Assembly (NCBI GenBank): GCA_030680695.1
Contig: JAUXUT010000149.1
Coordinates: forward strand, 39,801 to 103,800
Direction: 5' to 3'
DNA from: a bacterium
GTDB taxonomy: Bacteria > Patescibacteriota > Minisyncoccia > Phycocordibacterales > UBA6065
Length of the DNA stretch: 64,000 bases
This document shows, piece by piece, positions 23,807-47,956 of the stretch (position 1 is the stretch's first letter; every line of letters starts with the position of its first letter). The notes under the pieces are model-generated. The model was not told where the DNA came from. It did not search any database and worked only from the letters and a program-made list of their open reading frames with translations. The position numbers and the translations under genes were made by a program.

Positions 23807-23895
23807 GGAGACGTGTCAGAGTGGTCTAACGTGCCTCTTTGCTAAAGAGGTGTACCCCTTAAAAGGTACCGAGGGTTCGAATCCCTCCGTCTCCG
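23807..23895 (+). tRNA. tRNA-Ser(GCT)
   Basis: Acceptor GGAGACG/CGTCTCC, anticodon loop TTGCTAA, long variable arm, T-arm GAGGGTTCGAATCCCTC. Confidence 0.9.
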
Positions 23896-24003
23896 CTACA
23901 AAAACTTTCTTTCGGAGTGACCCGAGTACCCCGGATTTCGGCTGAAAATAACGCTCGTATAGAACGTTCGAATCCCAGATAGGTGAGGGGACTAGATACA
24001 GGG
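23894..24003 (+). repeat. Direct repeat DR-A copy 1 (attL-like, abuts tRNA-Ser)
   Basis: About 110 bp repeated at 24859-24966 (~80% identity); first 36 bp also at 47921. Confidence 0.7.
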
Positions 24004-24037
24004 ACGGATAGGGTGTAAATGACCCGGAAACGTATAC

Positions 24038-24066
24038 TTGACTTATACGAGTATTGGGTGTATAAT
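24038..24066 (+). promoter_or_regulatory. Consensus sigma70-type promoter (TTGACT-17-TATAAT)
   Basis: ttgact tatacgagtattgggtg tataat, 120 nt upstream of the 24186 ORF. Confidence 0.6.
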
Positions 24067-24185
24067 ATATAAGTAAAAGTACTTTGAGAGACCGCGGTGT
24101 TTCGGTTGAGTTTGGAAGGAAATAAGCGATTGACTTGCTGGCACAAAGCCACGCGGATCGTAGGTTTCCTCACTAAACTCAACTC

Positions 24186-24680
24186 ATGAACACCATCACT
24201 CAAATCCCTGCTTGGGAAATCATCCGTCTTATCGCGAGAGCTCGTGCGAACTTCGTTCAGACTGTATGGAAAGAACTCAAACGCCAATCTGGCAAGCAAC
24301 CGTCTGAGAACGAAGAAAGCTATATTCGACAGGCTGCGGAAAACTTCGTCGGGCGCACTAGCGTCACGGGCGAGGCGATTGAAGCGGGCGAATACAGCCG
24401 GTCGTGCTCGATCGTTTTTCTGGGGGAGGCCCATAAGCAACTTGCCTACTTCGTGCCCTCCAAACTTCTGCTGCGCGATGTCGTCATTAACGATCAGGAA
24501 AAGGGTAATCTTCACGAGGGTTACTTGGTCACCGTGACCGTGCCCGAAGGCACGGACATCATCGAGTTCGATGGACGGAATGAGCCGCTCTGCCTGAAAG
24601 GAACGGTGTCGGCCGTGTTCGGGACATGCCTCCATGGCGAAGACGGATTCATTGTCTCGAGCTTCAAGCATACGACCTAA
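24186..24680 (+). CDS. Hypothetical protein (sole gene of mini-element E1)
   Basis: ORF with consensus promoter upstream and intrinsic terminator (24731-24758) downstream; the antisense 323-aa ORF is rejected. Confidence 0.5.
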   Translation: MNTITQIPAWEIIRLIARARANFVQTVWKELKRQSGKQPSENEESYIRQAAENFVGRTSVTGEAIEAGEYSRSCSIVFLGEAHKQLAYFVPSKLLLRDVVINDQEKGNLHEGYLVTVTVPEGTDIIEFDGRNEPLCLKGTVSAVFGTCLHGEDGFIVSSFKHTT

Positions 24681-24730
24681 TAGCGGTATCCCGCTCCAGT
24701 TCCTTGAGAGTCTGGCCAAACACTCTCTGC

Positions 24731-24758
24731 AACCCGCATTCGTGCGGGTTTTGTTTTG
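24731..24758 (+). terminator. Intrinsic terminator
   Basis: caacccgcattcgtgcgggttttgttttg. Confidence 0.65.
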
Positions 24759-24777
24759 TCTGGAAAGAAAAACTACG

Positions 24778-24860
24778 TGGGATTCGAACGAAATTTTTAA
24801 AGGGAAGGGGTCATATTTTAAGCCACGCAATTCGCGCCGTTCGAATCGCTTTTAACCCGC
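24778..24860 (+). repeat. Direct repeat DR2 copy 1 (degenerate tRNA 3'-like segment)
   Basis: tgggattcgaacg...tcatattttaagccac...ccgttcgaatcgcttttaacccgc; second copy at 33558-33639. Confidence 0.65.
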
Positions 24861-24966
24861 TACAAAAACTTTCTTTCGGAGTGACCCGAGTACTTCGATT
24901 TTCAGCTTGTTTATTAGTTAGAAAAGAACGTTCGAATCCCAGGTGGGTAGGGAACTAGATACAGGG
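24859..24966 (+). repeat. Direct repeat DR-A copy 2
   Basis: See copy 1. Confidence 0.7.
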
Positions 24967-25226
24967 TAGCTTTTGGTGATTTAGCAAATCTTTCAATTAT
25001 TGTGAAAACAATTCTCGTTGACGCAGTCGATTGTTTTTCTCAGACCTAGGAGAAAATCCACATTGTTATTGTCAACGAAAGTGGTGAGGGATACATAGCA
25101 TGACGCCAAGAAAAATATGCACTCTAAAATGATCTCCTTAGTTCTACTCTCCGGCTCAGAGAGAAGAGACTTGTATCAATAGATGACTCCGAAGTGCGTG
25201 GGAAGTCCAGAGCGGGGTGTTGGCAA

Positions 25227-26357
25227 CTAATCTTTAATGATCCTACTTAAAAAAGGATTAATATTAGTCGCAATGTCATCTGGTATCGTACCGCATTCTC
25301 TTGCAATATTCATAATAGAATTCTGGTCTCTCGCATCACTGCTAATGACTGTAACAGGGCTACCGAGTTTTACATCCTTGATTTCCGTCACATCAATTAT
25401 TGTCGTATTCATACTTACCAAACCGATTATTTTCGCAAAGTTATTGCCAATTTTTACCACGCCTTTATTTGATAGTCGTCTATCAACTCCCGTATCGTAG
25501 CCAACAGGTATTATGGCAATCTTTTTAGCTGAATCTGAAATATATGTCCCGCTGTAACCAACTTTTGAGTTTGGTTCAATATTTTTTAATCCTGATATAA
25601 CCGTTGTCAATTCCAGCACAGGCTTCAAATGAACTAACGAGTCAACTTTTCCATTGCCAGCAAAACCATATAGACCCATTCCAGGGCGAGTCACATTCGC
25701 ACTGATCTTTTCGTTATAGCCATGGCCAGCTGAATTACTTACATGAAAGTATCGGATGTTAGTAAAATTGGTTTTGAAAATATCGACAGCAGAATTCCAT
25801 GCTTCAATTTGGATATTTGTATAAGTCGAATCTGTATTACCTGCATCAGAAAAATGAGAATAAAGTCCTTCTAGTTTAAGAGTCGGTGATTTTTTTATGA
25901 GCTCAATCGATTGAGAGATTTGAGACAGAGAGATTCCTTGCCTATTCATTCCCGTATCAATTTTTATATGCACATTAGTTTTTTTACTTATTCTGCTTTG
26001 CCATTCGTAAAGCATGTCTAGACTCGTAACAGCGAATGATATATTTTTTTGGGTCGATTTGTTTACGGTTTCAGCTTGAATGTATCCAATTACGAGAATT
26101 GGGTTCGTTATTTTGTTCTGCCTGAGAGCTATGGCCTCCTCGTACGAATCAATAATAAAAAAAGGAATTTTTTCTTTACTTAATAATTTTGCAATATCGA
26201 TTAATCCATGGCCGTAGGCGTTGCTTTTTAATACTGGAGCTATGGCAGGTGAAAGTTTTTGAAATTCTTGGAAATTGTGGATAAGAGCCCGTCGAGAAAG
26301 TGATATGAGAGTGTACGGAGTTGATGGAGACTTTAACTTAAATGTGATTTTTATCAT
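25227..26357 (-). CDS. alr: Alanine racemase
   Basis: VLKSNAYGHG PLP-Lys motif, C-terminal VSMNTTIIDVT; low-GC context. Confidence 0.85.
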   Translation of the reverse strand: MIKITFKLKSPSTPYTLISLSRRALIHNFQEFQKLSPAIAPVLKSNAYGHGLIDIAKLLSKEKIPFFIIDSYEEAIALRQNKITNPILVIGYIQAETVNKSTQKNISFAVTSLDMLYEWQSRISKKTNVHIKIDTGMNRQGISLSQISQSIELIKKSPTLKLEGLYSHFSDAGNTDSTYTNIQIEAWNSAVDIFKTNFTNIRYFHVSNSAGHGYNEKISANVTRPGMGLYGFAGNGKVDSLVHLKPVLELTTVISGLKNIEPNSKVGYSGTYISDSAKKIAIIPVGYDTGVDRRLSNKGVVKIGNNFAKIIGLVSMNTTIIDVTEIKDVKLGSPVTVISSDARDQNSIMNIARECGTIPDDIATNINPFLSRIIKD

Positions 26358-26391
26358 TGAGATATTTTGATATTTATACTATTATACCCTT

Positions 26392-27846
26392 ATGTCAAGT
26401 GAACTAAAAAACAACAAGGTTGAAAAAAAGATTACCGGTAGGAATGAGGATTATTCCCAGTGGTATCTCGATATAGTTGCATCTGCCGATCTCGCAGAAT
26501 GGGGCCCTGTAAAGGGATGTATGGTCATCAAGCCTTATGGATATGCATTATGGGAAAAGACGCAGCAAATCCTCAATGAAAAATTCAAGGAGACTGGGGT
26601 ACAGAATGCATATTTCCCGATTTTTATTCCCGAAAAATTTCTCAATAAAGAGAAAGACCATATCGAGGGTTTTGCACCAGAGGTTGCGGTTGTCACTCAT
26701 GCCGGCGGCAAGAAGCTCGACGAGCCTTTGATTGTGAGGCCGACATCAGAGACTATAATGTACGAAACTTTTTCTCGTTGGATACATTCTTATCGAGATC
26801 TGCCATTGTTGATTAATCAATGGGCAAATGTGGTTAGGTGGGAGATGCGTCCCCGCATATTTTTACGTACGGTTGAATTTCTTTGGCAAGAAGGACATAC
26901 GGTTCACGAAACTGAAAGTGAGGCAGATGGACGGGCACGCCAGATGTTGGAAATTTATAAAGATATTGCCGAAAATATTATGGCCATTCCAGTTATTACT
27001 GGAACAAAATCTGATTCGGAAAAGTTTGCTGGTGCGTTTAAGACTTATTCGCTTGAAGCCATGATGCAAGACGGCAAAGCTTTGCAGTTTGCCACCTCAC
27101 ACAATTTGGGACAAAATTTTGCAAAAGCGTTTGATGTTAAATTTCTCGATAAAAACAACACCGTCCAATATGGATGGCAAACCAGCTGGGGGCTAAGCAC
27201 GCGAACCATAGGCGGTCTTATCATGACTCATAGTGATGATAAAGGATTAGTATTGCCACCAAAAATCGCCTCAATTCAAACGGTTATTACAACCATCGTT
27301 CCTTCCGAAAAAGACAGAGAAATGATAAATCAGAAAGCCCAAGAGCTTAACATACTCTTAAAGAAAGCAGGCGTTAGAACCCATGTTGATAGTCGCGATA
27401 TACGCCCTGGTGAAAAATATTATGAATGGGAAAAAAAAGGTGTTCCGATACGTATAGAGCTTGGGCCAAGAGATGTAGCCAGCGATTCCGCCATGCTTGT
27501 TAGACGCGATACTGGGGAAAAGACAAAGACAACCATGAGTTCTCTGGTCGGGGATATCAATTCTCTGTTAAATAACATACAGCAAAATTTGTACGTGCGA
27601 GCACTAGATTATCGCAAAGCAAAGACAAAAAAAGTTGATTCTTGGGATGAGTTTGTAAAAGCGATTGAGGAAGGCAATTTTGTTTTAGCTCATTGGTCTG
27701 GTGAGAAGAACGTCGAGGCTCAGATAAAAGAAGAAACGGGAGCCACTATTCGATGCATTCCGTTTGATCAGACAAATGAGTCTGGAAAATGTATAAAATC
27801 AGGCATGCCTTCTACGGGTCGGGTGATATTTGCGAAGTCTTATTAA
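26392..27846 (+). CDS. proS: Prolyl-tRNA synthetase, archaeal/eukaryotic-like class II type
   Basis: WYLDIV..ADLAEWGPVKGCMVIKPYGYALWE, VRPTSETIMY, NQWANVVRWEMR.R.FLRT.EFLWQEGHT and a C-terminal zinc-binding-like domain. Confidence 0.9.
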   Translation: MSSELKNNKVEKKITGRNEDYSQWYLDIVASADLAEWGPVKGCMVIKPYGYALWEKTQQILNEKFKETGVQNAYFPIFIPEKFLNKEKDHIEGFAPEVAVVTHAGGKKLDEPLIVRPTSETIMYETFSRWIHSYRDLPLLINQWANVVRWEMRPRIFLRTVEFLWQEGHTVHETESEADGRARQMLEIYKDIAENIMAIPVITGTKSDSEKFAGAFKTYSLEAMMQDGKALQFATSHNLGQNFAKAFDVKFLDKNNTVQYGWQTSWGLSTRTIGGLIMTHSDDKGLVLPPKIASIQTVITTIVPSEKDREMINQKAQELNILLKKAGVRTHVDSRDIRPGEKYYEWEKKGVPIRIELGPRDVASDSAMLVRRDTGEKTKTTMSSLVGDINSLLNNIQQNLYVRALDYRKAKTKKVDSWDEFVKAIEEGNFVLAHWSGEKNVEAQIKEETGATIRCIPFDQTNESGKCIKSGMPSTGRVIFAKSY

Positions 27847-27854
27847 CCCACTTT

Positions 27855-29021
27855 ATGCCCTTTAAGGTATCTATACATGATGATCTGTCTATAAAAGATC
27901 TGATAGATATTAAAGATAAGGGAGGGGTGGTGTTAAAAACACCGCATGTCGGCAATATCTACCCTAACAATCTTGCAATTGCGTCTTTAGGTATACCAAT
28001 GCTCTTTTACGATAGGACTTTGGGGGTCAAAGATATAAGTTTTCATCCAGATAAAATTATTATTGGTGGCAGGTCAACGTTAATAGCCGACCCAAACATT
28101 TTAACCACGCATTCAATAGTCAAAAAGCTTCCAGGTTTAGCGTTTAAAGATGCAGCTGTCGGTATGAAGCTGGTGGATTTTCATATGTCCTCATTTAAAC
28201 GTGCGTTACCTCAGGCGGACTGTTTTACCTACACGGAATATATTCAAAATAATAAAAGTCAGATTCTCCAGATTTTAGAAAAAATCACAGAATTTCATCC
28301 ATATTTGTGGAGCAGAGGTGTTGATGAAAGCGGAAAGACTTTTAAATCTCAAGCAAAAAATTGGGACGACATCATTAGGTCGGGAGTCCTGGGGCTTACC
28401 AGTATGAAAAGTGGTTGGATTATACCTAATCCGGTCAGCATCCTTTTTCATGGAACCGTTGATACGCTAAAGGCAAACGCAGAAGATGTGTATCTCTTAT
28501 CGGGTCCAGACATGTATCGATACATAGAGGGATACCAACTCGAACTTAACGAGGCGTACGACTATTTAAGAAAAAGCTTAAAGTGTGAACTTCCTGAAAT
28601 GGTTCGTTGTCATATTATTCCTGTCATTTGCATGAGATTTATCGTTGAGGTTGATTATAGGAAAGTGCTAGATAATTTGGTCGATGCATACTTGAGATAT
28701 GTATCTGTCGATGATGCTATCAGAAAAATACTAAAGAGTGGCGCTCAAAACATGAGCATCGATGGGCACATAAATAAAAAGGATAAAATAAAAGAGGAAA
28801 TCTATTCTTGTATCAAAGGTCAATTTGATGCATTCAAAACTACCATGTTTTATGATGTCGAGGAGGCGGGCAGTTTTAGTCAGTATGATCTCGCCAATAG
28901 TAAGGGACTATACGTTCATCCGTGGGCGGTCAATAGTAAACTAAGCGATGTATCCAAGGCTTATAGTTTTTTATTGAGGTGCTATTTGCTCGTAAGAGAT
29001 AGGCTACAGGAAGAGATGTAG
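27855..29021 (+). CDS. Hypothetical protein (389 aa), unknown family
   Basis: ORF; start moved to the MPFKVS Met to clear proS. Confidence 0.45.
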   Translation: MPFKVSIHDDLSIKDLIDIKDKGGVVLKTPHVGNIYPNNLAIASLGIPMLFYDRTLGVKDISFHPDKIIIGGRSTLIADPNILTTHSIVKKLPGLAFKDAAVGMKLVDFHMSSFKRALPQADCFTYTEYIQNNKSQILQILEKITEFHPYLWSRGVDESGKTFKSQAKNWDDIIRSGVLGLTSMKSGWIIPNPVSILFHGTVDTLKANAEDVYLLSGPDMYRYIEGYQLELNEAYDYLRKSLKCELPEMVRCHIIPVICMRFIVEVDYRKVLDNLVDAYLRYVSVDDAIRKILKSGAQNMSIDGHINKKDKIKEEIYSCIKGQFDAFKTTMFYDVEEAGSFSQYDLANSKGLYVHPWAVNSKLSDVSKAYSFLLRCYLLVRDRLQEEM

Positions 29022-29029
29022 CTACTGAT

Positions 29030-29782
29030 ATGTCAATGGAATATGATCCAATTTTATACGATTCCGATCCAAGGCCTTTTCTTAAAGATGAGATAGAATT
29101 TTACGTGAAACTAGTCAATAAATTAAAAGCTAAAACGATACTAGAGCTCGGTGTAGGAACAGGAAGAATTTTTTCAAAGTTACTTCCGTTGGTTAAATTT
29201 GCCGAGGGGCTTGATATTTCGGAATCAATGTTAACCGCATGCAGAAATAAGTGTTCTGGTAGCATGAACTACAAATTACATAAAGCGAGTTTTACGGATT
29301 TTAATTTGCAAACTACATTTGATTTGATATACCTGCCCTTTAATACTTTTCAACACCTGCTTACGCAGGAAGAGCAAATTGAGTGCTTGATAAATATTAA
29401 AAATCACATGCACGTGGGCAGTCGATTCATCCTTGATGTAATGAATGGCGATAATTTAATTTTTGATTTTGAAAACTGGAAACAGGACTATGTGGGCACT
29501 TTGGCTGAAGGTGGATCAGTTGAGCGCGAACAAAAAACGATTAAAGTAGATTCAAAGAATTTTATCATCCATAAAATATTCAGGTATAAAGAAATTGTCG
29601 CTGGTAAGATTGATAAAATTCTTGAATTTAATGCACAGATGAAAGTAACTCCAAATAAGAAGATGGGGGAAATTTTACAGATGACTGGCTTTAAGATAGA
29701 AGACGTATGGTCTGATTACGCTTTCAGTTATACGTGCGACGCGAAGAAAATAATTTATTGCTTAAAATTAAATGGAGTTTAA
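29030..29782 (+). CDS. Class I SAM-dependent methyltransferase
   Basis: ILELGVGTGR motif I and downstream acidic-loop motifs. Confidence 0.7.
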   Translation: MSMEYDPILYDSDPRPFLKDEIEFYVKLVNKLKAKTILELGVGTGRIFSKLLPLVKFAEGLDISESMLTACRNKCSGSMNYKLHKASFTDFNLQTTFDLIYLPFNTFQHLLTQEEQIECLINIKNHMHVGSRFILDVMNGDNLIFDFENWKQDYVGTLAEGGSVEREQKTIKVDSKNFIIHKIFRYKEIVAGKIDKILEFNAQMKVTPNKKMGEILQMTGFKIEDVWSDYAFSYTCDAKKIIYCLKLNGV

Positions 29783-31070
29783 ACCAACTACTATAAAGCT
29801 AGAAAAAGGACAGGTGGTCACATCAATTTACCATAGTCCATTTGACTACAATCTTCTGTACCTTATTTGTCTCGCAAAAACTGGGTTGAAGGTAAGAATC
29901 ATCCTGGACGATATAGATAATTTGGGAGTGGATAAAAGCTTTCCTGAGGGGCCATATTCTTTCAGTGAAAAGTTTTTTATGAGTAAAACAGAAAGAACAA
30001 ATATTCGAGCCCTGTCACTGATAACCCCAAAACATCTCTTTGCAAATTTGTCGCACCCAAACCTTAAGGAGTTTGACTCGAAAATCGGTATATCCACGTT
30101 CAAAGAAAACATCAGATATAGAGATACTGTTGAGCACTGGATCAGGGATGTTACGAAAGATTTCGGCACTTTTTCTCTTATTGGGCCAGATAGATCGTAC
30201 GCTTTTACCATAGTCGATCATTTTTTTGTTCAAGCAATTAGCGATGCTAAGCAGCAAATAATTGATATCTTGAAAAAATTCCCTGATCATAAAGATAACT
30301 CGATTGAATTTATTGAATGGCTTTTTGATGAAAAAGCCATTTCAATCGGCACGCCTGTCTCTGATTATTTTTTATCAGTGATGCAAAAGATCGTTGATAA
30401 ATTTGATTTGCGCGATACCGTATCAGTAGAAAGGATGTCGGACTCGGGTATTGAAGCGAATACAAAAAAACTTATGGATTCATTTACCAACAAAGATTCC
30501 CTGTGGGAGACGTATAATTATGCGGTGGTAATTGAAGGTAAAAAAAATACGGAGGATTTTCCATTTTACGCCATATCTAAGATGGACGGGAAAAGATTGC
30601 TACCTACTGATAAATACACAAATGATCCTACCAGTTATTTTCTTGCACCGAAGGTGTTGATGCTTAACAATTTTGAAAACCTCGTCTTGCCATATCATGC
30701 AATGGGTAGCATGAATGTCCGCGCCAGACAGGCAATGTATCAAAACAAAGAAATAAATTGCAATCAAATTTTCTGTGACGACGAATGGATGAAACACATA
30801 GGTTCTTTCAATATCAAGGCACAACTCGATACTGAGGAGCAAAAGATATATGATATGGATACAGTAAATTTATCTTCACTAGGAGATTTATTTGCGAAAG
30901 GGAAAAAATCATACGGAGACAGCGTAAATACAGAAGAGGCCTATAAGGGTTGGATAATTACCTCGACTTTCAATGCTATTGATCGCGTCAAATACCCACT
31001 AATTTTTATGGCACTCCTCCAAAAAGAAGTTTTTCCTACAAAAATTCCTATTTTTTACAAATTAGCATGA
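29772..31070 (+). CDS. Hypothetical protein (432 aa), unknown family
   Basis: ORF co-oriented and tightly packed with neighbours. Confidence 0.45.
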   Translation: MEFKPTTIKLEKGQVVTSIYHSPFDYNLLYLICLAKTGLKVRIILDDIDNLGVDKSFPEGPYSFSEKFFMSKTERTNIRALSLITPKHLFANLSHPNLKEFDSKIGISTFKENIRYRDTVEHWIRDVTKDFGTFSLIGPDRSYAFTIVDHFFVQAISDAKQQIIDILKKFPDHKDNSIEFIEWLFDEKAISIGTPVSDYFLSVMQKIVDKFDLRDTVSVERMSDSGIEANTKKLMDSFTNKDSLWETYNYAVVIEGKKNTEDFPFYAISKMDGKRLLPTDKYTNDPTSYFLAPKVLMLNNFENLVLPYHAMGSMNVRARQAMYQNKEINCNQIFCDDEWMKHIGSFNIKAQLDTEEQKIYDMDTVNLSSLGDLFAKGKKSYGDSVNTEEAYKGWIITSTFNAIDRVKYPLIFMALLQKEVFPTKIPIFYKLA

Positions 31071-33639: not shown

Positions 33640-33762
33640 CTTGACAATTTAGTATCGGCGTGACCCTATTACTCGCGAGAGTAGTGCGACCCACGAACCT
33701 GCTAGATTGTACAAAACACCAAGAGAATTCTCTTGGTGTTTTGTTGTTTATATAATTATGAA

Positions 33763-38720: not shown

Positions 38721-38948
38721 GTGATTGGCACTGCTCGTCACACAGAGGAAAAGACGTTCACTGTGCTGTATCGACCTCTATACGAAAATGATTGGTTCAA
38801 ACCTGCTACCTACCAAGCAAGGCCGCTAGAAATGTTCAACGAAAGTGTCACGAAAGATGGCAAGGCGATTCCTCGTTTTCAGCAGATAACCGATCCAGAG
38901 TTAATTGCAAAACTCGAAAAGATGCGAGATCAAATTTATGGAAAATAA
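38721..38948 (+). CDS. DUF1653-family small protein; conserved N-terminus extends upstream without an ATG
   Basis: In-frame upstream read-through gives PPTGFYYHYKHDPNGPFNDYSYEVIGTARHTEEKTFTVLYRPLY...RPLEMF, the DUF1653 pattern; the open frame begins at 38649 (ATA) after a TAA. Confidence 0.5.
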   Translation: MIGTARHTEEKTFTVLYRPLYENDWFKPATYQARPLEMFNESVTKDGKAIPRFQQITDPELIAKLEKMRDQIYGK

Positions 38949-39489
38949 TAAAGAGCAAAATATAAAAATACTAAAAGCAATTCCAGAAGACGCTCTGGGT
39001 ATTACGACTGTTCTATATAAAACCTGGCTCGATACATATCCAAACGAAGAAATTGGCATCACCAAGGAAGATGTTGAGGAAAGTTATAAAGACCACTTCA
39101 TGGAGGAGCGAGTGAAAAAGCAACAGGAGAATATTGCAAATGCTCCAGCGAATCAACTGCGACTTGTTGCAAAATCTGGTGATCAGATTGTTGGAGTCTC
39201 AACGATGATTCGTAATGAAAATAATAATCAGCTAAGGACAATTTATGTTCTCCCTGAATTTCAAGGAAGGGGCATCGGTCAAATGTTGTGGAAAGAAGCG
39301 CAAAAGTTTTGTGATTCGACAAAAGATACTATTGTTCAAGTTGCTACCTACAACAAAAATGCCATATCTTTTTACGAAAAATTAGGTTTTACAGATACTG
39401 GTAAAAGATGGTCCGATGATAAATGGAAGATGAAGAGTGGTGCAACTATTCCAGAAATGGAGCTAATCATAAAAGTAAATAATTTATAA
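38938..39489 (+). CDS. GNAT-family N-acetyltransferase
   Basis: LRTIYVLPEFQGRGIGQMLW acetyl-CoA-binding motif A. Confidence 0.7.
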   Translation: MENNKEQNIKILKAIPEDALGITTVLYKTWLDTYPNEEIGITKEDVEESYKDHFMEERVKKQQENIANAPANQLRLVAKSGDQIVGVSTMIRNENNNQLRTIYVLPEFQGRGIGQMLWKEAQKFCDSTKDTIVQVATYNKNAISFYEKLGFTDTGKRWSDDKWKMKSGATIPEMELIIKVNNL

Positions 39490-39493
39490 ACGT

Positions 39494-40846: not shown

Positions 40847-40848
40847 TA

Positions 40849-41835
40849 TGGAAGCCATTTTACAAAAAATAACAGATCAATACGGACTTCGACTACAGCA
40901 TCTACAAAAAGTAGACCAAGGTTTTTTGACTGATAATCATATCCATCACGGATGGAGCGACCAAGTATTTTTTAAAGAAGTACAGGTTTAAAAATGTAGA
41001 GAAAATTAAGGAAATCCATTCCGTTAAGAAATATTTCTCAGACGGAGGGATTTCTGTCATCATGCCGATTAACACGAAAGACGGGAATAGCTTCTTCGAA
41101 CTAGAGGAAAGCTTTTATGCTCTATTTCCTTTTATCGATGATCGGCAAATGCAAGGCGAACAAATTACAAACAAAGCGGTTATCTCCTTGGCTGAAACCT
41201 TGGCAAGAATGCACCTCTTGGGTCGGGATGCCAAAATACCAGTAAGTGATTCTTTCAAGATGTGGGACAGGCAAAAGAGACTATCTGCCATTGAACAGAT
41301 TTTGGAGAAGATAAGCCAAATAAAAAATAAATCCGATTTTGATATTCGAGCCGAAAAGAACATTCTTTTCAAGAAAAATATTATTGAGTCGAAAAAAGAG
41401 GAGTATGAAAACTTGAAATTCAATAATGATCACTTGATACATGGTGATTATATGATCCAAAATGTGTTCTTTGATGGAAACGATAATGTTTCCTACGTTT
41501 TTGATTTTGAGAAAACGCAATACGCACCGCGATTTTTCGAACTATTCCGAGCAATGATTTATAGTTCATTTTTCGATAAGGAAATTACTGAAGCAATGGT
41601 GGCGCGCACAAAGCTCTTTTTGGATTCGTATCTCGAAATATATCCCGCAACTAAAGAAGATCTCGTAGAGAATTTTGAGATGTATTATTTGAGATCAGCC
41701 CATTCCGTATGGGTAGAAGAAGAGCACTATTTGAGGAATAATGACAGAGTTGATGAGCTCCTGAAAAGTGACATCGTACGAGTTAATTATCTGACGAATA
41801 ATTTAGAAAGCCTGAAGCTATTTTTGTTTAAATAA
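40849..41835 (+). pseudogene. APH/choline-kinase-family phosphotransferase, frameshifted paralog of gene 6380-7363
   Basis: N-terminal fragment MEAILQKITDQYGL...FFKEVQV stops at about 40990; the frame resumes (...SDGGISVIMPINTKDGNSFFELEESFYALFPFID) and aligns to the chromosomal YFLKQ...LFPFIEG paralog; C-part has HGDYMIQNVFFDGN and VFDFEKTQY. Confidence 0.5.
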
Positions 41836-41836
41836 T

Positions 41837-42178
41837 ATGAAAACCTGGACTCTGCGATTTCGAGTGATAGATAAAAAGAACTTTGATGAGGTTAAGAACG
41901 GATCAAAGCCTATTGAAACTCGTGCCGCAACTGTGAAGTATCAACCAATTGAAGTTGGCGACACACTTCTCTTTGTTTGCGGAAAGGAACGTCTAGAGAA
42001 AAAGATTACCAAGAAGCATCACTTTGGAAGTATTGATGCAATGATTAAGAAGATTCCTTACAAGGAAATTATGCCTTCTGTGGAATCTGTCGAGGAAATG
42101 AAGAAGGCTTATTCCTCATATTCTGGATACGATGAAAAGATAAAGGAGTTTGGCATTTTCGCCTTTGAACTTGAATAA
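41837..42178 (+). CDS. ASCH-domain protein
   Basis: Small PUA-like ASCH pattern (FDEVKNGSKPIETRAAT....IEVGDTLLF). Confidence 0.5.
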   Translation: MKTWTLRFRVIDKKNFDEVKNGSKPIETRAATVKYQPIEVGDTLLFVCGKERLEKKITKKHHFGSIDAMIKKIPYKEIMPSVESVEEMKKAYSSYSGYDEKIKEFGIFAFELE

Positions 42179-42182
42179 ACAT

Positions 42183-42842
42183 ATGAATGTTATTGAATCT
42201 GTAAAAAAGCTAAATTTTCCTTCAGATGAATATATTGTCGTCGGCACCGGCATCATGGCCGTACTCGGTTTGAAAGAGTCTCATGATATCGATATTGTCG
42301 TGTCACCTAGACTGTTTGAGCTGTCAAAATCTAATGGCTGGCTAGAAACGCCATATACCTATCCAGATAAAATCGGTCAGATCTATCTGAAAAAAGATGA
42401 TATGGAACTTTACCTCGATGTGAATTGTGGGCAGTTCAATCCAACGCTCAATGAACTTCTTTCAAGAAAGGAAGTATTCGACGATATAAACTTTATAAGT
42501 TTCGGTGACTTGTTGCGATTCAAAAAGGAATATAATCGACCAAAAGATGCCAAGGATATAGCTCTTATAGAAAAGCATCTTGCGGAACAGCTTAAGAAAG
42601 AAGGTTTTGCCAGTGTCTATGAATGGACAGATGTGCCTAACACAAAATATTCCGAACATGCTCACAAAGGTAAAGTCTCATTCTTCGTGATTCGCGGATC
42701 TGTGACATTTTCGGGAAATATAACCAAAACAGTAAGCACGGGAGAACGATTTGATGTTCCCGTCGGAGCAAATCACTTTGCTGTCGTTGGCCCTGAAGGT
42801 TGTGATTGGGTTGTTGGAGAAGAAGTTGAGGGAGATTCTTAG
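42183..42842 (+). CDS. Two-domain hypothetical protein: nucleotidyltransferase-like N-part plus cupin C-part
   Basis: C-terminal HAHKGKVSFFVIRGSVTF...GANHFAVVG cupin motifs; N-part has HDIDIV. Confidence 0.4.
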   Translation: MNVIESVKKLNFPSDEYIVVGTGIMAVLGLKESHDIDIVVSPRLFELSKSNGWLETPYTYPDKIGQIYLKKDDMELYLDVNCGQFNPTLNELLSRKEVFDDINFISFGDLLRFKKEYNRPKDAKDIALIEKHLAEQLKKEGFASVYEWTDVPNTKYSEHAHKGKVSFFVIRGSVTFSGNITKTVSTGERFDVPVGANHFAVVGPEGCDWVVGEEVEGDS

Positions 42843-42843
42843 C

Positions 42844-44940
42844 TCATATCCCAATATACGGAAACTGCGGTAAGTCATCCTCCCCAAAATCCTCCTGTTG
42901 CGTTGGCCTCTGAATAATTCTCTTGTCTTTGGCAATCGTCAGAGCAAGTGCGTCAGGAATGGATGAATCAATACCTTCTTCCATCAATGTCTCTCGGTCA
43001 GTCATCTTTCTCTTGCTGTTGGTATCGGTGTAAACCATGTAAAGCAAATCATCGAATAAATATCGCCCCACAAGCTTTCCGATTCGGAGCCATCCTGCCA
43101 ATTTTGAGTATGCTCTAGCCCAGTTGTCGGCAAACAAATTGTTCTCGAATTGAGGTTGCTCGTTCATCGTAATTCCATATCGCTGGCGGTTTCCATATTT
43201 GTTTACGTTGAAATGCCCGACCGCAAGCTGTCTCAACAAGTTACATAATTCCTGCCCTCGATCTACATTATCAATAAATATGTTCTCATCCGATATCGGC
43301 ACGTCATGTATCTTTGCGAGTTCGATAACTTTTAAAGCCATTGTTGTCGCATCTTGAATCGGCTCATGATACAAAACCTCGGCTGCATTCTCGCCTCTAA
43401 GCACGATAGTTGAGTGAGTCCTGTTCTTGTCAGCCAATACCACTCCCAATCTTTTGTCTCCAAAACACGAAACCCTTTCCTGATAGCTATCGTTCAATAG
43501 TCTTTCGTCAAAAAGTGCATGATAGCCTTTAGGTATATTCGATTCCTGATCCACGACACTTGATACGAGAATACAGAACGCATCCGAAAGGTCGTCGTGC
43601 TTTTCCGTACCGAATCCCACGAGTTGTTCAATCAGCTTCTCTGCACCATATCGGGGGAAGAGTACCGTGCCAGACTGAATATGGTGTGAGACGAGAGAAA
43701 GTCTTGCACGCTTGTCTGACCCTTGCGTTCTATACTCCTTCGCAGGAAAGTTCTCGGATTTCAGATGGTCGATGATTGATTTTTGGTATCCTACGTTCTC
43801 GATCCAAACATGGGCATTTCCGAGAGTTTTTGAAAGTGACTTAATCTTCTCGATCGTCTTCGGAAAATCCATTCTCTCGTTCACAAGATTAGGTAGAATA
43901 TAAATCTTCAACGCTTTCTTCCTGCCGTATATCTTTCCCGAAACCATCGCTGTGTAGTCCGCATTGTCCTTCTCGCTGATTGCAGGATCGATACCAGTCG
44001 CTGTAAATCTGCACGCATCACTTGGCAGAGAATCGTAATAGCGAATCCATTCAGGTCTGATCACCTGATCGTCATCGGCAATGATCTGAAGCATGTACTC
44101 TCGTTGCCATGCTTGGAGGCTTGGTACGGATTTTCGTAATGTCTCAACTTCGGCGTCCGTTCTATACTTGTCTTTCCATAATGGCTGATTGTTCTCGTCG
44201 AGGAAGGGGTACGCCTTTGCAATGCCGTCCATGCGACCTTCTAGAATAGCCTTCTTCAATCGCATGATAATCGAGTCATTGTGGAGCTTCGTACCAATAA
44301 CAATAAGTCTCGTGTCCTTGTCTCCCAATGGAATAATATCTCCCATGAGCCAGTTGAACATTTTGTCTCGGCTTTCCTGCGTTTTCACGATATCCAAATC
44401 TTCCAAGTCATCTGCGATGATAAGATCGGGTCTGTGAGCACCGTGCTTGATTCCACGAATCGAGTTGTCGATAGAGGCTACCGTTACTCTTGCTCCGTAC
44501 TTAGGAAGTACGATCGACACTGCACGCCATTCATCATTAGGTTCCTCGAATGGTCCGAGGTCTAATCTTAGAAGTCTGTTATGTTCAAGTTCCAGTTTAA
44601 TGTTCGCCAAGTACTGCCTTGCTTGGCTTTCGGTCTTTGCAATAATCAAAACAAATTTCCTTTGCTGCATTCCAAGAATAGACCAGATGGCGTAGGAAGT
44701 ACCCATGATAGTGGTCTTGCCCGATCCTCGAAAGGCTTCGATGACCATAGTCTTGTGAGTTGCCTCTGTCAGCTCAAATAATTCCTTATGAAATTGCGCT
44801 GTTTTGTATTTAACATAATGCGAGAAGTAGATATGGAAGAACCAGTAATGACATGCTCTGGTCGTCGCACGTCTTACTCGCTGATTCTTCACGATCTCAT
44901 CAATCTTCTCAGCCGATACTTCGGAGTCGTGGTTATGCAT
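42844..44940 (-). CDS. Terminase large subunit-like ATPase/nuclease
   Basis: Walker A FRGSGKTT, Walker B-like LIIADDLEDLD, C-terminal RNaseH-like TGIDPA...DYTAM; follows a terS-like gene. Confidence 0.6.
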   Translation of the reverse strand: MHNHDSEVSAEKIDEIVKNQRVRRATTRACHYWFFHIYFSHYVKYKTAQFHKELFELTEATHKTMVIEAFRGSGKTTIMGTSYAIWSILGMQQRKFVLIIAKTESQARQYLANIKLELEHNRLLRLDLGPFEEPNDEWRAVSIVLPKYGARVTVASIDNSIRGIKHGAHRPDLIIADDLEDLDIVKTQESRDKMFNWLMGDIIPLGDKDTRLIVIGTKLHNDSIIMRLKKAILEGRMDGIAKAYPFLDENNQPLWKDKYRTDAEVETLRKSVPSLQAWQREYMLQIIADDDQVIRPEWIRYYDSLPSDACRFTATGIDPAISEKDNADYTAMVSGKIYGRKKALKIYILPNLVNERMDFPKTIEKIKSLSKTLGNAHVWIENVGYQKSIIDHLKSENFPAKEYRTQGSDKRARLSLVSHHIQSGTVLFPRYGAEKLIEQLVGFGTEKHDDLSDAFCILVSSVVDQESNIPKGYHALFDERLLNDSYQERVSCFGDKRLGVVLADKNRTHSTIVLRGENAAEVLYHEPIQDATTMALKVIELAKIHDVPISDENIFIDNVDRGQELCNLLRQLAVGHFNVNKYGNRQRYGITMNEQPQFENNLFADNWARAYSKLAGWLRIGKLVGRYLFDDLLYMVYTDTNSKRKMTDRETLMEEGIDSSIPDALALTIAKDKRIIQRPTQQEDFGEDDLPQFPYIGI

Positions 44941-45370
44941 GTTCTGTGACGGTTAGACCGAGAGCTTCACGAACCATCTTTTCTTCCTGTGGTGTGAGTG
45001 CTTCTTCCTCTGCGGTCTTGGTGGTAAGTTCGACCTTGTTTCGATACTTAGGGTGATGCTGACGAAGCCAGAGTTGGATAGCTGGGAAGTTTTTCTCTTT
45101 AATCAGAGTGATCAATTGTGATTCGCTCAAATCATTGATCATCTCCTCGCCATCCTGCATTGCCTCGTCAGTCGCTTTCTTGAATTTCTCATCGTCTCGT
45201 CGCCATCGGTAGTATGTGCTTCGCCCGATGTTCGATCGCTCGCAGGCGATCTGCACGATCGGTATCTTTCTTAGTTGTTCCAAGACAACTTTCTGCTCTA
45301 CCTTGTTCCTTTTTAGAGTTGATTCTCTTTTCATAGTTTTATTGCTTTTAAATTTGTTAATTTTCCCCAT
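44933..45370 (-). CDS. Terminase small subunit-like HTH protein
   Basis: HTH (RSNIGRSTYYRWRRD); 8-bp overlap with the terL-like gene. Confidence 0.45.
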   Translation of the reverse strand: MGKINKFKSNKTMKRESTLKRNKVEQKVVLEQLRKIPIVQIACERSNIGRSTYYRWRRDDEKFKKATDEAMQDGEEMINDLSESQLITLIKEKNFPAIQLWLRQHHPKYRNKVELTTKTAEEEALTPQEEKMVREALGLTVTEHA

Positions 45371-46089
45371 CTAGTAATTGCTGTCTGCACATACTCTGGA
45401 TCAAGCTCAATAGCGATGCATACTCGCTTGGTCTGCTCGCATGCCAAGAGGCATGTCCCAGAGCCAAGGAAGGCATCGTAAACAACATCGCCAATGCGAG
45501 TGCTGTTCAGAATCAAATGCCGTATCAATGGCACAGGCTTGGTCGTCGGGTGGAACGGGCTTTTGTTAGGCTTTGGATGAACGATGACGCTCTTATCCTT
45601 CGATTTCAGGAACTCGTGCGTGCCGTACCAACCGTATGCGATAAGTTCGTGCATCGGTGCGTAATCCATTCTTCCGACGACTGCTTGGGTTTTCACCCAC
45701 ACGATGAGTTGAGCAAACTTGCATCCAATACTTTTCATTCCATCTCGCAAAGCAAATATCATCTTGTCCGAGTTGAAGATGTAGAGGGCGTTCTTCTTTT
45801 CGAGGAATGGTGTGACTGCTCCGAGCCAGTCCTCGGTGAATTTTTTGTATTCTTCGTCAGATTGTAGATGATCGTTCTCGATCTTCTTGTCTTTCAACAG
45901 TGCTTTGAAATTCTGCTTGCTTTCGGCAACGGCGACACCGTACGGAGGATCGGAAATAATGGCTTTGATTTTGTGTTTGCCTACAACTTTTGCAACAAAC
46001 TCCTTGTCTCTCGAATCGCCACAAGCAATCACATGTTCGCCTAACTGAAAAATGTCCCCAATCTTAATTGAGTTTAGTGACTTTTTCAT
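45331..46089 (-). CDS. DNA methyltransferase (N6-adenine/N4-cytosine, DPPY class)
   Basis: IISDPPYG motif IV, FLGSGT SAM motif; start set at MKKSLNS. Confidence 0.75.
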   Translation of the reverse strand: MKKSLNSIKIGDIFQLGEHVIACGDSRDKEFVAKVVGKHKIKAIISDPPYGVAVAESKQNFKALLKDKKIENDHLQSDEEYKKFTEDWLGAVTPFLEKKNALYIFNSDKMIFALRDGMKSIGCKFAQLIVWVKTQAVVGRMDYAPMHELIAYGWYGTHEFLKSKDKSVIVHPKPNKSPFHPTTKPVPLIRHLILNSTRIGDVVYDAFLGSGTCLLACEQTKRVCIAIELDPEYVQTAITRWGKLTNLKAIKL

Positions 46090-47350
46090 GTGGTGTGATT
46101 TGCTTAAAGCGGTTGATAATGAGCTGGCAGAATATCGGCTCCATCTCACAGAGATAAGCTGTGCGTTTCAGTTGTTCGCATGCAGACAGGATGCTTCCTG
46201 ATCCGCCTGTAACGTCGAGAACAATATCGCCAGGTCTTGAACACCTACGCAATGCCTTTTCGTGAAGTGTTGGTGGTTTCTGGGTAGGATGTGCGTACTC
46301 TTGAGAAGGTAGTCGCTTCACAAGCCAGATGTTAAGCATGTCCGAGATATCCTCAACTAATCTGTTGCCAGTCGTGGTTTCCTTGTTCAGGACTTCATTG
46401 AGATTCTTAACTTTGTCAGAGAGATATGGCTTGCCACGAGTTCCGTATACGCAGTATTCAGTGACTTTGTTGAAAGCAACTTGCGGTGTTGGGGAAGCGT
46501 TGTCTTTGACCCAGAGACACAGTCGTTTGGAATCAGTGCCGAGTTCTCTGTACAGTTCCTGAAAAAGCCAGACATATCGCTCGTCGCACCAGAAGAAAAC
46601 GTGAGCGTCTGGTTTGGTCACGCTCAATGCATTTTGGATAAGTGCCTTTGCGAATGTTTTGTATTCATCATCAGTCTTGCTGTCGTTTGTAGTTCCGCCA
46701 TACTTCGCCTTGTTGCCGACTCCTTTGTCGTATGAGAGTCCAATGTTATATGGTGGATCTGTATTAATCATGTCTGCAAGATTTCCGTCCATGAGGAACT
46801 TGATCATGCTCTGATCTGTCGAATTGCCGCAGAGCAATCGATGACGACCGAGCGCGAAGTAGTCGCCGAATTTAATATCAGTTTCCTTTATCTTCTCCAG
46901 TTCTTTTTCCTCGTCGAAGTTGTCATCTGTCACTTCGAGATTGTCATCGAATATATTTGTCAGATCGCCTGAATCAAATCCTGCCGTAAGCAAAGTGTCG
47001 ATATCGAAGTCGCTTGCGAGGATTTCCCAATCCCAAGAACCGCCAGAGCGATTGCTTGTAAGTAAGTACTGCTTGAACTCCATGACTGATAATTTTCTAT
47101 TGGGAATACGGACTTCGATTTCTTCCTCTCCTCGACCCATGAGTTGTAGTGCCTTAATGCGCTGATGACCTGCGACTATCTTTCCGTCTGTATTTATTGC
47201 AGGCAGCTCTGCAAGATTGAACTTCTTGAGGGATTCCTTTAAATCCTCCATCTGCTTGTCAGTGATCTTCCTCGGATTCTTCTCGTATGGAAGCAGATCA
47301 TTGACTCTGCGTTTTTCGGTGCGCCACACCAGTGGTTCTAATTTGGACAT
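46064..47350 (-). CDS. ParB-like nuclease domain fused to a DNA methyltransferase
   Basis: N-terminal ParB/Srx-like (LLPYEKNPRKI...GHQRIKA), INTDPPYN motif IV, VTGGSGS SAM motif. Confidence 0.75.
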   Translation of the reverse strand: MSKLEPLVWRTEKRRVNDLLPYEKNPRKITDKQMEDLKESLKKFNLAELPAINTDGKIVAGHQRIKALQLMGRGEEEIEVRIPNRKLSVMEFKQYLLTSNRSGGSWDWEILASDFDIDTLLTAGFDSGDLTNIFDDNLEVTDDNFDEEKELEKIKETDIKFGDYFALGRHRLLCGNSTDQSMIKFLMDGNLADMINTDPPYNIGLSYDKGVGNKAKYGGTTNDSKTDDEYKTFAKALIQNALSVTKPDAHVFFWCDERYVWLFQELYRELGTDSKRLCLWVKDNASPTPQVAFNKVTEYCVYGTRGKPYLSDKVKNLNEVLNKETTTGNRLVEDISDMLNIWLVKRLPSQEYAHPTQKPPTLHEKALRRCSRPGDIVLDVTGGSGSILSACEQLKRTAYLCEMEPIFCQLIINRFKQITPHEKVTKLN

Positions 47351-47920
47351 ATATTTTCTTCGTTATTAATAATGGGCACAGTATGCGTTCTTAATTCGAG
47401 CAGAAGTGTAGGAATTGCTTTTCTGCTCTTGGCACTATGGTAAATCCCAAAAAGTGACAAATCGTGGTGCATTACTTTTGCCTCCTACAATGCTACTCGT
47501 GAAAAAATGCAAAAAGGTGTGCATTACTTTCGCCACCCAGAATCGTATGCTGGCCAACGCATCCAATTAGTGGGTATTGAAATCGTATCGGGCCAAAAGC
47601 CTCCTGTCTGGGGGAATTACCTGGCAAGAAATAGATATAAAAATTAGTCCAGTGATCCTCTGAAAATATGCAAAATCAAAATGGCACACTGCTTTGGCAC
47701 AGTGTGCTGTTTCAATACCTCTAAAATACCCTTATGTGGCTTGGTGGATGATATCTAAACCGCCTTGCAAACACTCATTTGAAACACTGCCCCTGCGTGT
47801 GCCAAATTGTGCCAATTTGGAAAAACTAGACCCCGACCCACGAACTTCAAATTGGTCAGTCCGAATATGCTAAAATACCCTTACAAGGTCTTACTTGTGG
47901 GGTACTTAACCCACGATGCC

Positions 47921-47956
47921 CGCTACAAAAACTTTCTTTCGGAGTGTCCCAGGTAC
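47921..47956 (+). repeat. Direct repeat DR-A copy 3 (right boundary of the island)
   Basis: cgctacaaaaactttctttcggagtgtcccaggtac; GC content rises immediately after. Confidence 0.65.

Follow-up and report, generated by a model that had tools for sequence, protein, structure and literature searches.

The analysis concerns a 64,000-nt stretch of a Patescibacteriota genome (assembly GCA_030680695.1, contig JAUXUT010000149.1, positions 39,801 to 103,800; hereafter the window), in which the 3' end of a tRNA-Ser(GCT) gene is followed by three adjacent, separately bounded foreign segments, here named E1, E2 and E3 (Table 1). The data suggest that this tRNA end is probably an integration hotspot, occupied by a tandem array of three elements of the large serine recombinase (LSR) family: an intact element (E3), a decayed one (E2) and a mini-cassette (E1). 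The parts of this reading differ in strength. E3 is very probably an LSR element with the ends listed in Table 1, whereas the proposal that E1 and E2 were moved by the same kind of enzyme is evenly balanced. A preliminary description of the locus had recognized the three segments and taken the repeats as their boundaries, a division that is upheld here, and had regarded a serine recombinase at a tRNA gene as an oddity. We consider this pairing the main result rather than an inconsistency, because the comparative data point to the LSR as the integrase.

Repeats, junctions and content of the array

The boundaries are marked by two composite repeats. The first, X-Y, starts directly 3' of the tRNA. 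The 28-nt core of its X part, CTACAAAAACTTTCTTTCGGAGTGACCC, is found at 23896, 24860 and 47923 with 0, 0 and 1 mismatches, respectively, with no further copy in the 64 kb and 0 matches in 100 shuffles. Over the first 35 nt of X, copy 1 agrees with copy 2 at 34/35 positions and with copy 3 at 31/35. The full 114 nt of X-Y copy 1 are 79% identical to copy 2, in line with the ~110-bp repeat of ~80% identity reported previously at 24859, and 67.5% identical to the third copy, which had been described for its first 36 bp: the match at 47923 stands, but weak similarity runs on to ~48028 (nhmmer E = 1.4e-13). The second composite repeat, Y'-Z, shows 69% identity between its two copies (77% across an 85-nt core), carries CCGTTCGAATCGCTTTxAACCCG and corresponds to the T-loop-like repeat that had been located at 24778 and 33558. 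The motif CGTTCGAATCCCAG occurs in direct orientation at 23965 and 24929 and inverted at 24777 and 33557, and the inverted Y'/Y pair flanks the junctions; Y of copy 1 holds this motif (23965-23978) together with ACTAGATACAGGG. Z copy 1 (24811-24859) mimics the T-loop and 3' end of a tRNA and terminates in CCCG. Beyond the second Z, at 33640, stands a diverged block, X', which is 66% identical to X. E1 is bounded by the arm types of E2 and is a one-gene mini-cassette.

The four junctions of the array (J1 to J4, Table 1) all follow a common layout, in which a segment resembling a tRNA T-arm and 3' end, ending in CCG, is followed by an X-like segment that carries (T/A)TCGGnGTGACC 15-28 nt past the boundary and then a short hairpin with a copy-specific stem sequence. 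The 3' ends of the left-hand segments are co-linear (GGGTTCGAATCCCTCCGTCTCCG in the tRNA, CCGTTCGAATCGCTTTAAACCCG in Z and GGGGTACTTAACCCACGATGCCCG in the right, or P, arm of E3), the last 23 nt of the P arm are co-linear with the T-arm and 3' end of the tRNA, and dyad symmetry is visible by eye around the central CC at the boundary. One layout at four junctions, together with the presence of an LSR, fits the repeated attachment (att) sites found at every cassette border in staphylococcal cassette chromosome (SCC)-type arrays. X copy 3 is the native chromosomal trailer of the tRNA, displaced to the far end of the array. Upstream of X, the match to the tRNA consists of the 9-nt T-loop and the final CCG only; the tRNA-like part is strongly diverged (~5/12 nt after the T-loop, counted by eye) while the trailer matches at 34/35. 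The previous assertion that the locus bears the standard signature of att duplication at a tRNA 3' end is therefore not sustained: the duplicated block is the trailer X, and no tyrosine recombinase domain was detected in the 59 window open reading frames (ORFs) tested against Pfam. Low GC content had likewise been claimed for everything between the outer repeats. This holds for E2 and E3 but fails for E1, because E1 has a GC content of 0.50 and the flanks lie at 0.50-0.51.

Other identities for the repeats were considered and rejected. A structured RNA encoded by X-Y is not supported by the RNA fold of 23896-24010 (z = +1.8), and Rfam searches at E ≤ 5 match the tRNA only. The Y'...Y inverted repeat does not behave as an attC-like or cruciform structure, since its 23-nt arms pair, yet the single-stranded DNA fold of 24765-24970 as a whole is no better than that of shuffled sequence (z = -0.56). 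Z was not recognized as a pseudo-tRNA on either strand by ARAGORN or Rfam (minus-strand fold z = 0.01). An array of Xer/dif-type integrative mobile elements exploiting Xer (IMEX) was set aside as well, X having no dif-like dyad by eye and the cumulative GC skew showing no terminus-like turn.

The assembly was checked against the Logan assembly (k=31) of SRR13727517, where three contigs bear on the array, each matching the window at 100% identity. Contig L001 ends at the tRNA. Contig L100 equals window positions 24864-33740, comprising X copy 2, all of E2 and 100 nt of E3, and stops at a perfect palindrome. Contig L101 (37.6 kb) includes the LSR gene and J4 and continues into DUF1428, ComF and type IV pilus core genes. 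Of the four junctions, independent contigs hence confirm J3 (between E2 and E3) and J4 (between E3 and the chromosome).

E3 encodes the sole recombinase of the array, which is a serine recombinase, as had been stated. Its catalytic domain matches PF00239 (Resolvase; 67.1 bits against a cut-off of 23.3) over residues 33-177 with the serine motif YARKSTESEERQ, and matches to PF07508 (Recombinase; 51.1 bits) and PF13408 (Zn_ribbon_recom; 38.2 bits) are both above their cut-offs, with ~88 residues extending beyond the zinc-ribbon match. The closest solved relative is SPbeta SprA (9dxh), with E = 8.8e-10 over residues 34-393. Searches for Phage_integrase, at E ≤ 0.01 for the ORFs of E1 to E3 and at E ≤ 0.001 for 20 flank ORFs outside the region of the array, returned no match. 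The gene content described earlier for the three elements agrees with Pfam and PHROGs assignments. In a related contig (L089), the genes for LSR, TerL, TerS, methyltransferase and ParB/methyltransferase are contiguous; in the window a 5.5-kb cargo block sits between LSR and TerL and forms an island nested inside E3. Among the nine E3 ORFs run through PHROGs, which lie outside the LSR and the annotated cargo, none matched a family of capsid, portal or tail proteins. Because packaging genes are present while capsid, portal and tail matches are not, E3 looks like a phage-derived element or remnant and is not demonstrated to be a complete prophage. As judged from its sequence, E3 apparently retains an intact integrase and both att sites.

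Several further features of E3 were recorded. Part of the GNAT gene in the cargo block is 79% identical at the nucleotide level to a gene in a JGI contig (L092). TerL is 698 aa long, as against 485-510 aa in L089 and L091; its PHROG match covers residues 18-466 only, leaving a C-terminal extension of ~230 aa without a match. The Hypoth_Ymh protein has weak PADLOC matches to a HEPN-type Argonaute-associated protein and to PD-Lambda-3_B and is possibly a defence or abortive-infection gene. For the E1-E3 proteins without assigned function, PADLOC yielded weak methyltransferase and HEPN-type matches only. A perfect 30-nt palindrome (AACACCAAGAGAATTCTCTTGGTGTT..., 33715-33744) lies just inside the left end of E3 and precedes its first ORF. 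The k=31 Logan assembly breaks at this palindrome, which could act as a terminator or operator.

The genes of E2 were assigned with Pfam and NCBIfam, its alanine racemase and type-I ProRS being bona fide enzymes of their families, and no recombinase was found among its ORFs with Pfam. A hidden tyrosine integrase among the ORFs without matches was considered and discarded: the 410-aa and 432-aa proteins, for which PDB sequence searches gave no useful match, are members of a conserved operon. The E2 cargo (25053-33325) is 78% identical at the nucleotide level to L092 over 8.2 kb, and in that contig the E2-type block adjoins a 114-aa gene and an LSR gene whose product is 57% identical to the window LSR. 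A small gene of this kind adjoins the LSR gene on its upstream side in both E3 and L092. In E2, tblastn revealed a start-less remnant of such a gene: identity to the 114-aa protein of L092 is 69% across 42 aa, and identity to the product of ORF 37641-37976 is 43% across 51 aa. A comparison by eye indicates that a ~75-nt deletion took out the start codon. Since this remnant of an LSR-accompanying gene persists, E2 is best understood as a decayed LSR element that lost its own LSR module; the earlier remark that E2 has no recombinase of its own is correct, but reflects secondary loss rather than an original feature. The six-gene core from ProRS to the ATP-grasp protein is also present, with ~52% amino acid identity, in other contigs of the candidate phyla radiation (CPR), beside a type I restriction-modification system (L096-L098), and with 77% identity in L092, beside the LSR. 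A possible product of the operon is a peptide or an aminoacyl-derived compound, for which ProRS would either supply a precursor or serve as the resistance copy.

Table 1. Coordinates of the tRNA gene, elements, arms, genes and junctions in the window
Feature	Position	Strand	Remarks
tRNA-Ser(GCT)	23807-23895 (end 23895/6)	+	ARAGORN; Rfam RF00005, 48.2 bits
E1, mini-cassette	23896-24859		0.96 kb, GC 0.50
X-Y copy 1, left arm of E1	23896-24009	+	X = 23896-23930, directly 3' of tRNA
Promoter-like site of E1	24038-24066		near-consensus
ORFan of E1, 164 aa	24186-24680	+	homologue search matched itself alone
Terminator-like hairpin of E1	24731-24750
Y'-Z copy 1, right arm of E1	24741-24859	+	inverted Y motif 24777-24790
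E2	24860-33639		8.8 kb, GC 0.38
X-Y copy 2, left arm of E2	24860-24970	+	34/35 in X, 79% over X-Y
Remnant of small (111-114 aa) LSR-accompanying gene	25044-25202	-	start-less; tblastn
Alanine racemase	25227-26357	-	TIGR00492, 276 bits
ProRS, type-I	26392-27846	+	TIGR00408, 604 bits; 1H4Q, 2e-169
Conserved protein, 410 aa	27789-29021		no assigned family
S-adenosylmethionine (SAM) methyltransferase	29030-29782
Conserved protein, 432 aa	29772-31070		no assigned family
MurF-like ligase	31067-32374
Cyanophycin-synthetase-like ATP-grasp protein	32304-33356
Y'-Z copy 2, right arm of E2	33521-33639	+	with X' makes the junction where E3 starts
E3, LSR element (very probable)	33640-47922		14.3 kb, GC 0.43
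X', P' (left) arm of E3	33640-33700	+	CTTGACAATTTAGTATCGGCGTGACCC, hairpin, then GCGACCC
ORF, 238 aa	33733-34449	+
Hypoth_Ymh (TIGR02391)/HEPN-like	34469-35311	-
ORF, 176 aa	35315-35845	-
LSR	35984-37333	-	full length, 442 aa by independent gene call
Cargo block	37400-42843		~5.5 kb, GC 0.39; DUF1653, GNAT, 450-aa methyltransferase, APH-type kinase, ASCH, 230 aa
Small gene, 111 aa	37641-37976	-	immediately upstream of LSR
TerL, 698 aa	42844-44940	-	PHROG E = 6.5e-80
TerS-like	44933-45370	-	PHROGs
DNA methylase	45331-46149	-
ParB-methylase	46064-47350	-
P (right) arm of E3, conserved	47829-47922	+	GACCCCGACCC ... GCTAAAATACCCTTA ... GGGGTACTTAACCCACGATGCCCG
X copy 3 and diverged Y-like tail	47923-48028	+	then chromosomal genes, joined in Logan contig L101
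J1			left, real tRNA; right, X-Y
J2			left, Y'Z; right, X-Y
J3			left, Y'Z; right, X' (66% identical to X)
J4			left, conserved P arm (47829-47922); right, X

Recombinase context and site occupancy in related loci

The association between LSR genes and tRNA 3' ends was assessed by comparing the window with related loci. Orthologues of the window LSR, at 67-80% identity, are encoded by four IMG/VR contigs (L087-L090) and by a RecG locus (L053). A homologue of X' lies directly 3' of tRNA-Ser(TGA) in L087 and L088, of tRNA-Ser(ACT) in L053 and of the RecG-linked tRNA-Ser(GCT) in L057, where the copy reads ATTGACAATTTAGTATCGGTATGACC...GTGCGACCC as compared with CTTGACAATTTAGTATCGGCGTGACCC...GTGCGACCC in the window. 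In L087, L088 and L053 an LSR gene (77-80% identical) is located 0.9-2.9 kb from the tRNA end in convergent orientation; the window LSR is oriented in the same convergent way, 2.3 kb from J3. In L090, a homologue of the P arm and a P'-type arm are fused, with the ParB-methylase to one side and the LSR to the other. From their sequence, these fused arms are taken to be an intact, unintegrated attP, of which the X' homologue would be the right half. The P arm of the window aligns with this attP and with the P arms of L002 and L082. On the basis of the tRNA-adjacent X' homologues and the L090 attP, the bounds of E3 are set at 33640-47922, with the exchange point within the CCG(C) common to the tRNA end, Z and the P arm.

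The convergent arrangement is not confined to close orthologues. Of the 12 loci whose context was usable, 8 have an LSR gene (30-80% identity) directed towards a tRNA or tmRNA 3' end (tRNA-Ser in five, and tRNA-Thr, tRNA-Asp and tmRNA), always in convergent orientation. These genes include distant LSRs (30-37% identity) at other RecG loci, in which roughly less than 0.5 kb separates the alignment end from tRNA-Ser(GCT) (two cases), tRNA-Thr, tRNA-Asp or tmRNA. By a rough estimate, chance adjacency of an LSR and a t(m)RNA would be expected at a few percent per locus.

The distribution of X was examined in one metagenome scan, which returned five contigs, and in 81 related genome loci. In the five metagenome contigs and in L002, X occurs solely beside a tRNA-Ser 3' end or an element arm (Z or P). 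It is for this reason not a dispersed family, a possibility that the preliminary description had raised against the repeats as boundaries. No match to X was obtained in viral contigs, in which a TerL search likewise confirmed no candidate and a P-arm pattern search returned only the contig of L090 itself.

The content of the tRNA-Ser site differs among L002, L057, L082, L083 and L085. The tRNA is followed by X-Y in L084, L085 and L086, and L085 and L082 have an E1-like unit ending in Y'Z. L082 carries in addition a 2.3-kb element between the tRNA and a P/X-Y junction, and L002 a 2.9-kb element between the tRNA and a P/X junction, in which the C-terminal remnant of an LSR is kept (81% identity over 37 aa). 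L083 has a mini-insert of ~160 nt. In L057, four junctions (tRNA/X', Z/X', Z/X' and Z/B', where B' denotes the native trailer) bound three cassettes of 1-3.8 kb. Arrays at the same tRNA without an LSR are thus found in L057 (three cassettes), L082 and L085, whose cassettes mostly hold one to three genes, and LSR genes or remnants co-occur with these arms in six loci. Neither E2 nor E3 is present at this tRNA site in any of the relatives. What occupies the site depends on the strain or species, and arrays are frequent. A comparison with an empty site had been suggested; a truly empty site, with tRNA-Ser, X and a core gene in succession, was sought and not found, each recovered relative having at least a mini-element or an E1-like unit.

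Proposed mechanism and competing explanations

The arrangement of arms suggests a model of integration. The bacterial site, attB, would consist of the T-arm and 3' end of the tRNA (B half) and of the trailer X (B' half), so that tRNA-Ser(GCT) is proposed to be the left half of the integration site and to remain intact. Each attP would copy this layout at equal spacing, with a left half mimicking the T-arm and ending in CCCG and an X-like right half in which (T/A)TCGGnGTGACC precedes a hairpin. The LSR would cut and rejoin within the CCG shared at the tRNA end, the crossover position being a putative one. As the exchange would take place inside the shared CCG, the tRNA would stay intact and no true target duplication would be needed; insertion would instead supply the tRNA with a new trailer, hairpin included, and the repeated X and Z blocks would be the similar arms of elements inserted in succession rather than copies of one duplicated core. 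The model predicts that the attP of excised E3 would read ...GGGGTACTTAACCCACGATGCCCG joined to CCTTGACAATTTAGTATCGGCGTG..., that the site left after E3 excision would read ...GTTCGAATCGCTTTAAACCCG joined to CTACAAAAACTTTCTTTCGGAGTGTCCC..., and that the circles of E1 and E2 would be closed by a joint of Y'Z to X-Y. P' arms are similar to X, and P arms to the tRNA end, so that at least one target-like junction would persist after every insertion, which would explain the arrays. E3 may have entered at a Z/X junction, or it may have come first, at the tRNA/X junction, followed by E2 and then E1 at the tRNA-proximal junction. Both histories fit the observed arrangement equally, and any order of insertion is conjectural.

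Several observations weigh against an array of LSR-family elements. The 34/35 direct repeat X that flanks E1 and E2 is more typical of tyrosine-recombinase or Xer-type integration. Canonical LSR attP and attB sites share little beyond the crossover dinucleotide. The co-linearity of attP and attB at this locus, with equal motif spacing, is unlike characterised LSR sites and leaves directionality without a clear determinant. Most cassettes in relatives are devoid of an LSR, and their mobilisation in trans is purely what we infer. E1-like units stand at the same position in several lineages with native GC, and E1 may be an old, fixed, non-mobile feature. The LSR-bearing relative of E2, L092, has neither X-Y nor Y'Z arms in its 14-kb contig. 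A tyrosine recombinase is possible elsewhere in the ~650-kb genome. Finally, J1 and J2, which fall inside the 34-nt identical X, are resolved by the metagenome-assembled genome (MAG) assembly alone.

The composition of E1 bears on an alternative that does without integration for two of the three elements, namely that X-Y and Y'-Z are conserved expression or termination modules 3' of the tRNA, and that homologous recombination in these modules swaps cargo among strains, E3 alone being integrative. The ends of E1 are 79-84% identical to those of L082 and L085, while the ORF between them differs in each. In L082 (reverse-complemented 2497-3164), identity to 24038-24750 is 79-84% over the 290 nt upstream of the ORF and over the terminator/Y'Z region; the 75-aa ORF is unrelated to the ORF of E1, homology breaking off close to the start codon. 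One ORF seems to have been replaced precisely by another while the surrounding expression context, with the promoter-like region and the terminator, was conserved, which keeps alive both the homologous-recombination explanation and an exchange of cassettes. The native GC of E1 and the lack of a recombinase in most cassettes are compatible with the former. It does not account well for E2, which has the arm types of E1 and yet is foreign in composition (GC 0.38) and of LSR-linked descent, nor for Z, which mimics the tRNA 3' end at the exact spacing of the P arms of LSR elements, nor for the three successive Z/X' junctions of L057, which resemble attP sites. We regard swapping by homologous recombination as unlikely.

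The near-perfect 35-nt direct repeats that flank E1 and E2 could alternatively represent the identity core of tyrosine-integrase islands, in which case a tyrosine integrase, since lost or encoded elsewhere in the genome, would have inserted E1 and E2 and perhaps also E3, and the LSR would be unrelated cargo or an enzyme that acts only on something internal. The attP-like arms, with three copies of the motif CGTTCGAATC around the junction, resemble arm-type binding sites, and tandem accretion is generally common for elements of this class. The divergence pattern described above is nonetheless the opposite of that expected from a displaced tRNA 3' end, the tRNA-like part having diverged and the trailer being near-identical, and the same arms are accompanied by LSR genes or remnants in the six loci mentioned. 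The absence of Phage_integrase matches from the E1-E3 and flank ORFs extends to the three ORFs of the L002 element, which were scanned against Pfam (the cassettes of L082, L057 and L085 lay outside that scan). A tyrosine-integrase origin is held to be improbable, slightly more so than homologous recombination. An assembly artefact, in which the MAG would have taken up low-GC contigs of other populations at X, is very improbable: although the window derives from a MAG, X is common to several species and the k=31 Logan contigs break at X copies 1 and 2, contig L100 passes from X copy 2 through E2 into E3 at 100% identity, contig L101 runs from the LSR through the right end of E3 into pilus core genes, and arrays of the same kind exist in related genomes.

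Beyond the favoured reading of this one locus as a hotspot with three LSR-family elements, a more general proposition may tentatively be put forward, which we regard as possible but rather doubtful: that Paceibacteria possess a serine-recombinase cassette system at t(m)RNA 3' ends, in which the attP sites used by an LSR clade mimic T-arm and trailer, the target is regenerated and recombinase-less cassettes are moved in trans. Under this proposition, units of 1-9 kb without a recombinase, many of them consisting of one ORFan with a promoter and a terminator, would accumulate and be exchanged. If true, such a system would correspond in function to integrons or SCC, with a serine recombinase as its enzyme, and would be a principal channel of gene flux in reduced genomes.

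Relation to known systems and other features of the region

The closest analogue, by comparison of architecture, would be the SCC composite island, in which LSRs integrate DNA at a conserved gene's 3' end, each border bears an att repeat and tandem cassettes are often recombinase-less (PMC11470126, PMC6222049). Like SCC/SCCmec and the Enterococcus cassette chromosome, where Ccr recombinases act at the rlmH/orfX 3' end, the array presented here combines 3'-end integration that keeps the gene functional, att repeats at the borders, a tandem mix of recombinase-bearing and recombinase-less cassettes and, partly by general knowledge of SCC, accessory or defence cargo. The two differ in anchor (rlmH in SCC, a tRNA here) and in host, which here is a CPR bacterium. 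They differ also in enzyme: SCC uses a CcrA/CcrB pair, whereas a single LSR is present here, with SPbeta SprA as its closest solved relative. In addition, the arms at this locus mimic the tRNA T-arm, and mobilisation in trans is here a supposition.

With serine-integrase prophages (SPbeta SprA, A118, phiC31, Bxb1, TP901-1), E3 shares a three-domain LSR, the position of the integrase near the element end, phage-type packaging and methylase genes and, as deduced from the comparison, an attL/attR/attP logic. Characterised serine integrases use protein-coding or intergenic targets, as opposed to a tRNA here, and attP and attB at this locus look co-linear and homologous over ~60 nt; complete prophages differ further by the structural families that the nine E3 ORFs did not match in PHROGs. 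Tyrosine-integrase tRNA islands (P4-like, Islander-type) are similar in their tRNA 3'-end location, preserved tRNA, tandem accretion, variable occupancy and foreign GC, but here an LSR is found and no tyrosine recombinase, and the repeated block is the trailer rather than a tRNA 3' segment. Integron arrays are comparable in their short serial cassettes of one or a few genes, recombination-site-like borders and fixed anchor. They differ in that the array has no IntI and no attC-type hairpin signal (z = -0.56), that E1 has its own promoter-like site and terminator, and that cassettes here reach 14 kb.

As a genomic island array the locus is ordinary in principle; it is unusual in its pairing of enzyme and target and in its host group. 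A survey of 2,168 genomes described serine integrases as 'not known for targeting tRNA genes', and the same 2020 survey predicted t(m)RNA use for 14/297 serine integrases (4.9%), experimental proof being lacking and none having been reported (PMC7192596). In the library searched, no paper on serine-recombinase prophages or elements in CPR/Patescibacteria was found. tRNA targeting has so far been taken as a hallmark of tyrosine integrases, while here one LSR family and distant LSRs are found at tRNA-Ser, tRNA-Thr, tRNA-Asp and tmRNA 3' ends, with attL, attR and attP all recoverable from comparison alone. If confirmed, this would imply that the preference for tRNA genes is not tied mechanistically to tyrosine recombinases, and would reveal a route by which CPR bacteria, whose genomes are very small, acquire accessory genes, as well as compact (~440 aa) serine integrases whose natural target is highly conserved. 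It would also draw attention to a conserved mobile seven-gene operon encoding ProRS, Alr, a MurF-like ligase, an ATP-grasp protein, a methyltransferase and two proteins without assigned function.

The array lies in a conserved setting. The left flank consists of core genes (SecY, Adk, Map, Ndk, IF3, pyruvate kinase, FtsH, SmpB, tmRNA, tRNA-Ile and RecG) and the right flank of ComF-like and type IV pilus genes. Proteins of E1 and E2 have 100% matches among the proteins of a 649,430-nt NCBI MAG contig (locus tags Q8L64_03705 and Q8L64_03730). The RecG of the window is 72-73% identical to that of MAGs labelled Paceibacterota or Taylorbacteria, and the RecG/tRNA-Ser(GCT) neighbourhood is kept in dozens of related Paceibacteria loci or MAGs. 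A tRNA-Ile with anticodon TAT (UAU), at 20936-21009, adjoins RecG in the window and in nearly all related loci (L002-L053). Bacteria mostly read AUA with a lysidine-modified CAU tRNA, and a UAU tRNA-Ile is unusual. ARAGORN also predicts a tRNA-Ser(ACT) beside tRNA-Ser(GCT) in many related Paceibacteria (L012, L013, L015, L017, L020, L021, L027, L028, L033, L037, L039, L052, L053 and others) and none in the window. In L053 this tRNA-Ser(ACT) hosts an E3-type element; a serine tRNA with A34 would be unusual.

A 0.8-kb stretch of low GC (0.34-0.38) with small ORFs (16000-16911) lies 3' of the tmRNA gene (16912-17305, minus strand). No direct repeat was detected at this stretch, which may be another decayed insert. 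The tmRNA trailer has a terminator hairpin and, after it, the tmRNA 3' end in reverse complement; the same design, a hairpin and a reverse-complemented 3' end, is seen after tRNA-Ser in L006, L007, L012, L073 and L083. The tmRNA 3' end of L005 has an LSR gene converging on it. Elsewhere in the core region, the 382-aa product of ORF 9560-10708 (minus strand) strongly matches an Ice_binding-like domain (PF11999, 6.6e-59). To the right of the array, the DUF1428 gene (48066-48447) is split by a frameshift or stop near 48153-48160. Since the independent Logan contig shows the same split, with gene calls of 69 and 95 aa, it is a real pseudogene or recoding site and not a sequencing error of the MAG.

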